Under the pieces are notes generated by a model. The model did no database searches, was not told the origin of the DNA, and saw nothing but the letters and a program-made list of their open reading frames with translations. Positions 25,789 through 41,289 of a stretch of 64,000 nucleotides of DNA are shown here, piece after piece. The translations under genes were made by a program, and so were the position numbers. The first letter of the stretch is position 1; the number at the start of each line of letters is the position of its first letter. The DNA is from Leptospiraceae bacterium (GTDB lineage: Bacteria > Spirochaetota > Leptospiria > Leptospirales > Leptonemataceae): contig JAVJNR010000009.1 in assembly GCA_040217195.1 (NCBI GenBank), positions 32,001-96,000 on the forward strand, given 5' to 3'.

Positions 25789-26601
25789 ATGAAGCAATTT
25801 CGAATTCTATCATTATTTATTTTTATTTGCTTTTTCCTGCCCGGATCGCTGGCAGCCGAGGCAATCTATCTAAGAAATGGGCAGGTGATTTACGGACAGA
25901 TTGTAAATCAAAACACAACCCAGGTTCGTATCCTGACCAAAGAGGGGATGCGAGTCATTCCCAAATCCACAATTGGCCGGATCGATTATGGAGCTACCGA
26001 ACCGAAGCCAGAACCAAAACCGGAACCAAAGCCTGAGCCTAAGCCAGAACCCAGACCAGAGCCAAAACCCGAACCGAAACCAGAACCCAGGCCGGAACCA
26101 AAACCGGAGCCCAGGCCAGAGCCAAAACCGGAACCGGCCTCTAAGCCCACTCTGCTGGGGGCCATGTGGCGAAGTGCTCTACTCCCGGGCTGGGGCCAGT
26201 ATTATCAGGGTCGAACTCAGGCCGCTTATATCTATGGGGGCAGTTTTCTGGCTCTGGCAGGTACCACCGGCATACTTTACCGGGAATTTGAAGTGCAACG
26301 TACTCAATATAACGATGCTGCCACGGATTTCATAAACTATTCACCGCTTGTCGTGAACTATGACTCCGCCGCCGCTCTTGGGCTAGTTACGATTCTATCA
26401 TTGAATAAGCTGGAAGCAACCAGAACCCAGGCAGATCAACTGGCCACCTATGCAAATGTAGGCGCTACGCTTACCCTTGCATTGTATGCCTGGAATTTAA
26501 CGGATCTCTGGCTCTATGAACCTGGAAAGGGTATGCTAACCACTGTTTCGCCCACTCCGGCAGGGGATGGGCTACGACTGGGTTTTCATGTTCGCTTCTG
26601 A
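25789..26601 (+). CDS. secreted/outer-membrane protein with LA_0442-like N-terminal domain, EPKP linker and DUF5683-like C-terminus
   Basis: Signal peptide, [16 protein letters not shown], (EP[KR]P)x11, [14 protein letters not shown]-terminal Phe. Confidence 0.75.
25999..26136 (+). repeat. coding 12-bp tandem repeat, (EP[K/R]P)x11
   Basis: Degenerate GARCCNARRCCN units with varied synonymous codons. Confidence 0.9.
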
Positions 26602-38115: not shown

Positions 38116-38871
38116 TCATTTCTGGCCATCTGAGGAAGAGGACAGCGGGAAGTAGTCCGCAAAATCCTCGGAGCCTATGATCTTTACCTGACCAGGTCGA
38201 AGCTTGTTTTTATACTCCATGGCCGATATGCCATGAATCAAAAATCCCGGATAGTAATAATCCAATCCCATTTCCTGAGCCAGATGAATTTCCAGCAACA
38301 TAGAATAGTGTCCAGGAGAATATGAGCTGTATTCCGGATCGAAAAAGAAATACACCGAACTCCAGGCATCCATGATCAAATCGCATATACCCAGGCCTAT
38401 CATTTTACCCTCATCCCAGATCTGTAATTCGCGAGTTCGATCTCCAAGAAAACTTCGTACGAAAAACTCCATATAGGAAAATTCATCCAGCATCAATGCC
38501 TGTTCCGGATCGCCATGCTGGGCTGCCAGATACTTTCGATATAAATCCATTTTCTCCTGGGTCATTCCCGGTCGCACCAATCTGTACTGAAATCGCTGCT
38601 GACCCGATCGAAACACCCTTCGCTGGCTCTTTCGCATTTCGAAGGAGTCTACATGCACTCTATAAATCTGACATTCCCGGCAGGATGGACAATCCGGACG
38701 ATAAAGGTGATCCCCGCTACGTCTGTACCCTTCATCCAGCAGCATTCGATACATCTGCCCCACATTATCGCCGCGAAGAAAAAGCAATGATGCAGGCCGA
38801 TCCTTGAAGTAAGGACAGAGAGGCTCATGCCTGGCCAGAAAGAATTGCTTTTCCAATTGCGGTAAATTCAT
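38116..38871 (-). CDS. ATE1/Bpt-family aminoacyl-tRNA-protein transferase (arginyl or Asp/Glu-leucyl transferase)
   Basis: CPY, GYRRSG..YRPDCPSCREC, SSVYFFFDP, YYYPGF..MEYK. Confidence 0.9.
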   Translation of the reverse strand: MNLPQLEKQFFLARHEPLCPYFKDRPASLLFLRGDNVGQMYRMLLDEGYRRSGDHLYRPDCPSCRECQIYRVHVDSFEMRKSQRRVFRSGQQRFQYRLVRPGMTQEKMDLYRKYLAAQHGDPEQALMLDEFSYMEFFVRSFLGDRTRELQIWDEGKMIGLGICDLIMDAWSSVYFFFDPEYSSYSPGHYSMLLEIHLAQEMGLDYYYPGFLIHGISAMEYKNKLRPGQVKIIGSEDFADYFPLSSSSDGQK

Positions 38872-38883
38872 AGTGTTTTATAG

Positions 38884-39501
38884 AGGTACGCTCGCTCGGC
38901 TACCTCCTGTAGCCGCGCTCCCGTTTTCTTTTTTTGCGGTCCTACGGACCTTGCGATCATCCTGATCGCGGAGATCAAGATCTCCAGGTACGCTCACTCG
39001 GCTACCTCCTGTAGCCGCGCTCCCGTTTTCTTTTTTTGCGGTCCTACGGACCTTGCGATCATCCTGATCGCGGAGATCAAGATCTCCAGGTACGCTCGCT
39101 CGGCTACCTCCTGTAGCCGCGCTCCCGTTTTCTTTTTTTGCGGTCCTACGGACCTTGCGATCATCCTGATCGCGGAGATCAAGATCTCCAGGTACGCTCA
39201 CTCGGCTACCTCCTGTAGCCGCCCTCCCGTTATCTTTTTTTGCGGTCCTACGGACCTTGCATGAACCGGTTGGGTTGCGGCGCAACCCCCTCAAATTGCT
39301 GCCGCCTTCCAGTTGGCCTACCTGATCGCGGAGATCAAGATCTCCAGGTACGCTCACTCGGCTACCTCCTGTAGCCGCCCTCCCGTTATCTTTTTTTGCG
39401 GTCCTACGGACCTTGCATGAACCGGGTGGGTTGCGGCGCAACCCTCTCAAATTGCTGCCGCCTTCCAGTTGCCCCACCTGATCGCGGAGATCCGGATCTC
39501 C
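38884..39501. repeat. tandem multi-hairpin repeat array, 3 x 102 bp + 2 x 156 bp
   Basis: Units start AGGTACGCTC at 38884, 38986, 39088, 39190, 39346; each holds four inverted repeats. Confidence 0.97.
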
Positions 39502-39661
39502 CCTAACGCTCGGCCTTTGAAGTCCGGTTTTTACCCACGGATATAAAGACCTCGCAAGCCAAACCACACGATTTGGTTTGTAGCACAATCGATGCACGGA
39601 ATCGTTGCTTGCGCTACCGAGCGGGGGCTCAAAAGCCCAACGTTGTGTCAGCTCTTTTGTC

Positions 39662-39691
39662 TTGACAGTTTTGTAACATCCGATCCAAGAT
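39662..39691 (+). promoter_or_regulatory. possible sigma70-type promoter for the MCP
   Basis: TTGACA-18-CAAGAT just upstream of ATG 39706; -10 is imperfect. Confidence 0.35.
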
Positions 39692-39705
39692 CGTCGGGAA
39701 ATCCC

Positions 39706-41289
39706 ATGGCTTCCACCGGCAAAAATGATAACGATTCGGCTGACTCCATATTAGCACGGAGTTACCGGTTTTCCAACTATGTTCGGCTTGGCCTTGCCCT
39801 GGTTTTTGCCGGAGCGGTTCTGGCCACTGGAATCGGCCGGTTTCATTTAATCATTATACAGGCAGAAGCAGTGGGCACACTGGTCTACCTATTTCTGGGC
39901 CTTCTGGGACTCTACCTTATGCGGGGCGGTCGTATTCCCCGTCGGTATGCCCGGCTGGCCGTGTTTCTGGATCTAACCACATTGGGCGGCATCTTCGCTG
40001 TAGTCTGCTTTCACGGCACCTACCAGGCCTATCAGATGATAGGTAACATGCCGGTATTTGCCATATTCTTTATTAGCATCGGTTACTCGGCTCTGCTGGG
40101 TTCTCCAAGGTTCACATTTGCACTGACTCTTTATGCCGGTCTACTTTATGCGATGGGCCTGGTCATGGCGGCCAACAATGGCGTTGCATTTGGAGGCAAA
40201 CCCGATCCATTGAATCACGTCCTCAGCTTGCCAAATTGCATATTGCAAACATTGTTCATTGTCCTTACCGGAACCATCATTGCCGGAGTTCTACAGATGC
40301 ACAGGGGGCTTTCTAGAATTGCCGATGACCATGCAGGGGAAAAAGCAGCACTGATTCAGTCATTGAAGGAACGGCGGGAAAAGCTGGCCAATCATGCACT
40401 GGAGCTGGAGGCCACCACGGCCGATTTCAAGAGATTCGTGGAGGATACCACCGGTAGAATCGAAGCCCAGGCAGCAGCGCTGGAGCAAGCCAATGCTGTT
40501 TCAGAAGAGCTTACGGCCAGTGCGACCAGCACATCGGAAACCGTACAATCCCAGAGCCAGGGTATTGAGAGAATGGCAAGCGAAAGCCAGAGGCTGCGAA
40601 GTATCATAGATCATGTAGCCCGCTCCAACGAATCCCTGAATCGTTCAGCCCGAGATAGTATGGACAGTATGCAGGCTACCGGTGAGGCTATTGAGCAGAC
40701 CACAGGTAGCCTTCTGGATCTGGAACAGGCCTTTGCAAGCGTGCAGCAGATAACCACTATTATGATTGAGATCGCAGATAAGACGAATCTACTGTCCTTG
40801 AATGCATCCATTGAAGCAGCCAGAGCCGGAGATGCCGGCCGAGGATTTGCCGTGGTAGCCACTGAAGTTAGCAAACTTGCAGATTATACGGCCGAGAACG
40901 TCCGCAAAATTAGCGATATTGTGGAACAATCACTGCATACAATTGCAAATGCCCGTTCCCATGCGGATAATGCCGTTAGTCAGGCCACCACCCAGAGAAC
41001 CAGGACCAGAGAAACCGAACAGCAGGTCCGGGCTACTTCTGACCTGCTCAAGAGTCAGAATGAAATACTGGAAAACCTGATTGCTGAATTGGAAACTCAG
41101 AGGGACCGGGCCGGAGTTGTTATTAGCACGGCGCGTGAGCAGATAGAAGGACAGCAGGAGCTGGCAAGGACAATAACCAGCCTGGACTCCGAGGTAAGTA
41201 GAATTAACGAGGCCTCCACTCGGTTAAAACAGGGAATTGATAGTATAGCACGGCAGAGCCATGAACTGCGGGCATTGAGTCAGACGTAA
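39706..41289 (+). CDS. methyl-accepting chemotaxis protein, paralogue of 20031-21614
   Basis: MCP hairpin [20 protein letters not shown]; shared [26 protein letters not shown] sensor. Confidence 0.93.

Follow-up and report, generated by a model that had tools for sequence, protein, structure and literature searches.

The window, a 64,000-nucleotide stretch of genome G000 (G000:C8:32001-96000), contained a tandem repeat array at 38884-39501 that consisted of three 102-nt units (38884-38985, 38986-39087, and 39088-39189) and two 156-nt units (39190-39345 and 39346-39501), arranged head to tail on the minus strand. Downstream on the same strand lay a gene encoding an arginyl/leucyl-tRNA-protein transferase (Pfam ATE_N and ATE_C; 38116..38871), the ATG of which starts 13 nt past the ...GTACCT end of the array. 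The other side was occupied by a divergent gene for a methyl-accepting chemotaxis protein (39706..41289, plus strand; start codon approximate). The 102-nt units differed from each other by 0-1 base and the two 156-nt units by 6 bases, which indicates that the expansion of the array was recent. In a relative, the depth of a collapsed unit contig (30, vs. 7 on the flank; run X1) fits a real tandem array.

Folding of the minus strand of the array gave a z-score of -10.1 against 20 shuffles. The first copy of hairpin C (38888..38924) is topped by an AGGAG loop, and its long stem is interrupted by a tandem-GA internal loop, GGA/GAG; the 19-nt core (38897-38915) recurs at 38999, 39101, 39203, and 39359. 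Hairpin B, a 5-bp stem closed by a C-GTA-G triloop, was located at 38938..38950, with further copies at 39040, 39142, 39244, and 39400. Hairpin A is a 17-nt element that can be drawn with an AGGAT pentaloop or a GGA triloop (38953..38969, 39055, and 39157); it is disrupted in both 156-nt units, where a second small module (39299..39315 and 39455-39471, minus strand) replaces its loop and 3' arm. A linker hairpin D, with strand unassigned, separates the units (38970..38985; others at 39072, 39174, 39330, and 39486) and varies across the repeat family. The fixed 3' end of the repeat, GAGCGTAC, is joined to a CTCTA flank (38885-38881), the putative target motif, and together they span 38881..38893 on the minus strand. 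The five copies of the 19-nt hairpin and the three copies of the 17-nt hairpin make eight GGA-loop hairpins on this strand, exactly where the preliminary description had placed them, and the array extends to 39501, past the endpoint of 39377 given there.

A third module (39552..39632, plus strand) is oriented opposite to the array, toward the chemotaxis gene. The loop of its hairpin is ACGAT in the window but AGGAG in the copy from G002 (L005 1895-1990), whose inverted-repeat ends are flanked by TA. In many arrays (L064, L068, L075, and L091), the second module, approximately 20 nt long, comes immediately after a hairpin A or hairpin C loop, and it could form a small pseudoknot on paper; it was also detected within two HINT-domain cassette genes, in which the frame is kept open (G000:C1:3229 and near C1:43900). 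Elsewhere in the window, a degenerate 12/18/36-nt tandem repeat (25997-26135) probably codes for a proline-rich linker.

An open frame of 239 codons runs across the array on the minus strand (39597-38878), and both local unit lengths are multiples of 3, which leaves the frame open. That it encodes a repeat protein is extremely improbable, and this reading was rejected because the frame has no Pfam match, the period of the orthologous G004 array is 106 nt, and the changes among units keep base pairs, not codons.

The array was found in sense orientation, directly upstream of the transferase gene, in five genomes of the genus, with 1-5 units at the site, and the transferase leaders of 19 genomes outside the genus lacked a repeat array. 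The neighbour of the array is the chemotaxis gene in three of these five genomes and serC in the other two. The placement of the array before the transferase gene agrees with the preliminary description; the link to chemotaxis was rejected. In G003, the transferase-site array (L096 2523-3094, G003:C288) mixes units of either orientation, whereas the other arrays are head to tail, and in G016 a weak unit lies near the 3' end of the transferase gene.

Structure, distribution and mobility of the repeat family

Related arrays elsewhere in G000 were seen by both BLAST and a hairpin census. The census recorded 1578 perfect-stem pentaloop hairpins genome-wide, and the four CAGGANG loops were among the commonest classes and clustered in few arrays; when stems of at least 5 pairs were required, these loops numbered 67, vs. 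36 in one Markov-3 simulated genome, an excess of only about twofold. The family unit is approximately 90 bases long and carries three hairpins. Hairpin A, with 5 bp and a five-base loop, comes first and is followed by hairpin B, which has 5 bp and a triloop; after a variable linker comes hairpin C, built of 3 bp, the GGA/GAG internal loop, 10 bp, and a five-base loop, and the unit ends in GAGCGTAC. When 39 distinct full units were aligned, 92.9% of 892 cells were paired, and 18 of 23 pairs showed two-sided changes; slid controls paired in 24-41%, a comparison that flatters the structure because it was drawn from the same related sequences. The GGA/GAG internal loop, with its tandem G-A pairs, was retained in 89 of 135 units. 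The copies of the family are related, and therefore all of these counts overstate independence.

G000 contained 31 units at 11 loci according to the family model, plus a 12th locus before fliY. The other six genomes of the genus were all positive, with 2, 18, 10, 44, 24, and 6 units among at most 95 candidates scored per genome, and the number ranged from 18 to 44 among well-assembled genomes. Outside the genus, the candidates scored yielded one unit in 1 of 21 genomes from the family's other genera, and the sister family (18 genomes) had none (model search). This single extra-genus unit (L076 4070-4158, G024:C1:1822569) is immediately adjacent to the 3' end of an opposite-strand gene that resembles tmRNA, as called by eye. 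A scan of 185,579 species with a hairpin-C pattern returned 51 genome hits, of which 20 were titled as spirochaete or Leptospirales assemblies. The best scores of the other 31 were 22 and 17 bits, which were taken as chance, and no convincing member was found among them; the four viral hits were not supported by the family model, and a stricter pattern gave one metagenome hit. The literature searches, which missed most subscription papers, found no prior description of this repeat family.

The sites were tallied from 65 clusters in eight genomes, with Pfam names for 34 neighbours and with contig-end and ambiguous clusters left out. Among the 17 sites that could be classified by hand count, 12 had a start codon 3-60 nt ahead on the GGA strand. 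The genes concerned are those for the transferase, an esterase operon, two 4Fe-4S proteins, a GDSL lipase, an SNF transporter, fliY, DinB, citrate synthase, korB, and a gene after fliG, as well as an internal start of rpn. At the remaining five sites, the repeat adjoins the 3' terminus of an opposite-strand gene (aldo-keto reductase, an unknown 314-aa gene, PHB regulator, TPR protein, and the tmRNA in G024), and the 12 vs. 5 split is not different from even (P = 0.14). At the PHB-regulator site, both neighbours are on the non-GGA strand in five genomes, and the loops nevertheless persist. Most repeat sites recur across genomes of the genus, which indicates that they are old and have been retained. 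Units after an acyl-CoA dehydrogenase gene and before the stop of the aldo-keto reductase gene form one array in G004, G001, and G006, whereas in G000 they lie near two contig ends (C4:615725 and C1:7126) with cassette-like genes between them; in G002 and G005, this array is followed by an AraC gene. The array may be an island entry point.

Several sites were occupied in only some of the genomes. The korA-korB junction and the site before a CCG/4Fe-4S gene were each filled in one of seven genomes, and one of six rpn alleles (PF04754) was interrupted. In that allele, GAGCGTAC joins the gene's own CTCCA, and 27 target bases were lost at the far junction, with no duplication. The inserted unit (L073 2502-2591; G004:C4:6201-6290) lies just before an internal start codon of this rpn/YhgA-family gene, and G004 also had the most rpn copies by DNA search (four loci) and the most repeat units. 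Among 47 recognisable ends from the 65 clusters, a set in which orthologous sites were counted repeatedly, CT follows in 47 and CT(C/A)TA in 39. The comparison of filled and empty sites exposes the fixed end and the likely target; on the opposite strand, the target reads TA(G/T)AG and is followed by GTAC of the repeat end. The same CT-- letters open the linker between internal units, and part of the CT flank may belong to the repeat itself. The rpn junction was the only clean one, as the other filled sites were too diverged, and it could alternatively reflect short-homology recombination.

Searches for a mobilising protein of the repeat identified none. Y1_Tnp (PF01797) was detected in none of the seven genomes of the genus, four of which are at least 90% complete, and in 1 of 41 in the family; RAYT (NF047646) was detected in none of the seven genomes; and IS110 and Y2_Tnp were each detected in none of five, the latter in a search without any control match, which makes that count uninformative. 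RT was found in one of five genomes and had no repeat nearby, and a stand-alone GIY-YIG gene likewise had no repeat near it. A crude HUH motif scan of the G000 frames returned only one unrelated protein.

It is close to certain that the array unit belongs to a mobile mosaic repeat. The reservation in the preliminary description, that such hairpins also occur in ordinary REP-like DNA repeats, fits best. We regard a non-autonomous, REP/BIME-like mosaic repeat that spreads as single-stranded DNA in a one-ended manner, with CsrA as a secondary reader, as the probable explanation. It builds on the observed dispersal, covarying structure, lineage-specific gains, single junction without duplication, and recent local tandem amplification. 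Under this explanation, the GGA strand would be the folded strand, as DNA, and insertion would be one-ended, with a constant orientation, in the manner of IS91, IS200/605-derived, or REP elements. A protein acting in trans would drive the insertion, although none was found in the searches, and the fixed repeat end would be joined to the CT(C/A)TA target. Since this target reads TA(G/T)AG on the other strand, such a mechanism would explain the landing at stop codons and, likewise, the anchoring in start regions. Tandem units might then arise from unequal recombination or rolling-circle run-on.

Loop sequences and the possible involvement of CsrA

The conserved consensus of the five-base loops was CA(G/C)GANG. 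Across 193 such loops from 135 distinct units, the first base was A in 191; the second was G in 132, C in 55, A in 4, and T in 2; the third was G in 183; the fourth was A in 192; and the fifth was any base, with a C-G closing pair. Accordingly, 55 loops (28%) read ACGA, in which the first G of GGA is replaced by C. This pattern points to a switch from G to C, whereas neutral drift would probably have favoured A, and the same switch occurs in two other modules. The extent of GGA retention differed among sites. The SNF-site array of G005 had GGA in none of eight scored loops, and in some genomes few or no GGA loops are left in the arrays before the SNF and DinB genes, whereas GGA was present in 13 of 14 scored hairpin-C loops at the transferase site of five genomes, including the extra mixed-orientation units of G003. 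Overall, 140 of 211 short loops, about two thirds, carried GGA.

The available text of PMC4005645 gives A(N)GGAX as the rule for CsrA, with core bases that are not substitutable. Loops of the array fit this rule with a C-G closing pair, and according to the same text, CsrA binding to five-base loops is weaker by 1-3 orders of magnitude than binding to loops of six bases. In this family, a base at which CsrA reportedly tolerates no change switches naturally between G and C. Features of the hairpins also fit DNA. Hairpin B had a GNA triloop in 107 of 129 cases, and triloops of this class give DNA mini-hairpins of very high stability (PMC13037366, accessible part). G-T accounted for 69 of 2727 standard pairs (2.5%), vs. 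40 of 478 (8.4%) in tRNA stems, which are a crude control. The C-GNA-G triloops and the rarity of G-T pairs would suit single-stranded DNA, and the excess of G-T over A-C (69 vs. 39) speaks for the GGA strand being the one that folds; DNA and RNA folding energies did not discriminate. The GGA-like loops are likely recognition marks of the DNA spread, and CsrA could also read them in the transferase message.

The csrA gene on which a CsrA reading depends was found in the genome (G000:C2:66856, 89 bits), with fliW directly before it. The same csrA-fliW arrangement is described for Leptospira, where CsrA needs GGA and FliW is the presumed antagonist, and a predicted CsrA-related ncRNA is mentioned for L. 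biflexa (PMC8668096, in the portion available). In G000, all four flagellin leaders (C4:139941, C3:203289, C3:204396, and C1:74059) carry A-C/A-N-GGAG over the ribosome-binding site, and in two of the four the motif was predicted as a hairpin loop. These leaders are expected to be ordinary CsrA targets, and six-base variants of the repeat loop are equal to them in loop sequence.

The preliminary description had proposed that the array is either a tandem-amplified RNA that titrates CsrA or a CsrA-controlled leader of the transferase gene. Like CsrB/CsrC and RsmX/Y/Z (CL00106), the array presents several C-G-closed AGGAN loops on one strand, eight of them with GGA, in a genome with csrA, and CsrB was its best bacterial resemblance in Rfam. 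This resemblance scored 9.5 bits (E = 5.4) against a cut-off of 71, which does not qualify as a match, and a scan of 16 related loci gave nothing relevant or near cut-off. Unlike CsrB and RsmZ, the array does not appear to be a single transcription unit; the repeat unit is mobile and dispersed over 12 loci in G000, varies from 1 to 5 copies at this site across genomes, and has C in place of the first loop G in 28% of loops. A crude consensus scan of 38700-39800 found no promoter-like and no terminator-like sites, the next ATG follows the array after only 13 nt, and FliW is encoded next to CsrA. A dedicated CsrB/RsmZ-type small RNA gene at the array is therefore very unlikely, and the proposal is not supported in that form.

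It is also quite unlikely, although conceivable, that repeat transcripts from many loci jointly titrate CsrA alongside FliW, as has been proposed for TwoAYGGAY (PMC4333381 and bioRxiv 10.64898/2026.09.22.753630, available parts). The approximately 140 GGA loops among 135 distinct units in eight genomes and a second family with AYGGAY-type loops in the same genome agree with such a sponge. However, well-assembled genomes carry anywhere from 18 to 44 units, many loops read ACGA, FliW is encoded in the genome, and the five-base loops would bind more weakly than six-base loops by 1-3 orders of magnitude (PMC4005645, available text).

Alternatively, the repeats could be CsrA-control cassettes, that is, transcribed 5' leaders of the transferase, fliY, gltA, SNF transporter, and other genes in which CsrA tunes translation or stability. 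We consider this rather unlikely as the main explanation. The transferase site is filled in five genomes and has kept GGA in 13 of 14 hairpin-C loops there, and the 19 other-genus leaders have no array, whereas the SNF and DinB arrays have lost most or all of theirs in some genomes. In the flagellin leaders of G000, CANGGAG covers the ribosome-binding site, and CsrA of Leptospira requires GGA (PMC8668096, portion available), but the nearest GGA loop of the array is approximately 30 nt from the transferase ATG and does not lie over the ribosome-binding site. Similarly, the GGA strand lies in sense upstream of a start, 3-60 nt from it, at 12 of 17 sites, but the loops are kept at antisense sites as well, and the downstream genes have no common pathway.

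Binding of CsrA to the predicted transferase leader, if it is transcribed, is nevertheless plausible on sequence grounds, given that two thirds of the loops fit GGA, six-base loops resemble those of the flagellin leaders, the sites are old, and GGA has been retained at the transferase site. With a mobile REP/BIME-like repeat as the preferred explanation, any such binding at the transferase locus would be secondary. A more speculative extension, which we hold to be doubtful, is that the mobile repeat places CsrA docking leaders before start codons and so would bring new genes, here the N-degron transferase, under CsrA/FliW control. Tandem amplification and the G/C switch in the loop would tune the strength of this control, and the arrays would jointly form an RNA layer of CsrA titration in a FliW-bearing spirochaete.

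Comparison with described repeats

REP repeats are linked to RAYT, and both RAYT systems and IS200/IS605-derived palindromic elements parallel the one-ended insertion pattern. Similar to REP, BIME, and REPIN, the present family is lineage-restricted and intergenic and forms palindromic, modular tandem arrays near gene ends (PMC3733652, accessible part). It differs in that the three-hairpin unit is longer and that its end reads, on the opposite strand, TA(G/T)AG and then GTAC, in place of the strict GTAG/CGTC tags of REP; in addition, RAYT was found in none of seven genomes, and most sites precede start codons. With the ends of IS91, as described in the available part of bioRxiv 10.1101/2025.01.24.634351, the repeat would share one fixed end adjoining a short target and, judging from its one clean junction, the lack of duplication, along with sub-terminal hairpins and a ragged far end. 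Unlike IS91 and IS200/605, the family had no transposase in the searches, its target is CT(C/A)TA vs. CTTG/GTTC, and only one junction was clean. TD-1 and TD-2 are multi-copy, covarying repeats of a spirochaete, and MAEB, a tandem hairpin located ahead of metabolic genes, was tentatively suggested to act like CsrB (Weinberg 2007, PMC1950547, portion available). These are similar in kind to the present repeat, but no model matched: TD-2 (RF03162) had no match at E <= 1 in five genomes, and neither TD-1 nor MAEB appeared in whole-Rfam scans of the array and the 16 related loci.

TwoAYGGAY (RF01731) and its reverse complement Bacillaceae-1 (RF01690) are the closest described kind. They are multi-copy intergenic hairpins with CsrA-type loops, proposed as an unproven Csr/Rsm sponge (PMC4333381; the comparison also draws on PMC2864571, both in part), and a 2026 preprint describes a mobile-like expansion of TwoAYGGAY while leaving the link to regulation open, at least in the accessible text (10.64898/2026.09.22.753630). 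The present family shares with them the multiple copies, CsrA-type loops, tandem G-A stem pairs, and variable copy number, as far as the available parts of these sources describe them. In contrast to TwoAYGGAY, which has two AYGGAY hairpins on a basal stem and divergent doublets, a layout absent here, the family has three serial hairpins, five-base A(G/C)GAN loops, a GNA triloop, and head-to-tail arrays. The TwoAYGGAY model had no matches in G000 and stayed below cut-off in all five genomes searched. What is described here is a repeat family at the genus level, and the sponge idea itself had already been published for TwoAYGGAY. TwoAYGGAY and Bacillaceae-1 were read as CsrA sponges from their loops alone, and the present family cautions that counting GGA loops overcalls sponges.

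G000 also contains a distinct family made of nested hairpins, whose six-base loops are of the AYGGAY type and whose five-base loops read AGGAN or ACGAN (G000:C1:18170, 41776, and 44010; C4:598754; C10:290435 and 533072; C5:81789 and 82109; and C7:300-1650). Several of its copies follow apparent tRNA ends or lie among mobile-looking genes, and this family is closer to TwoAYGGAY than the array at 38884-39501.
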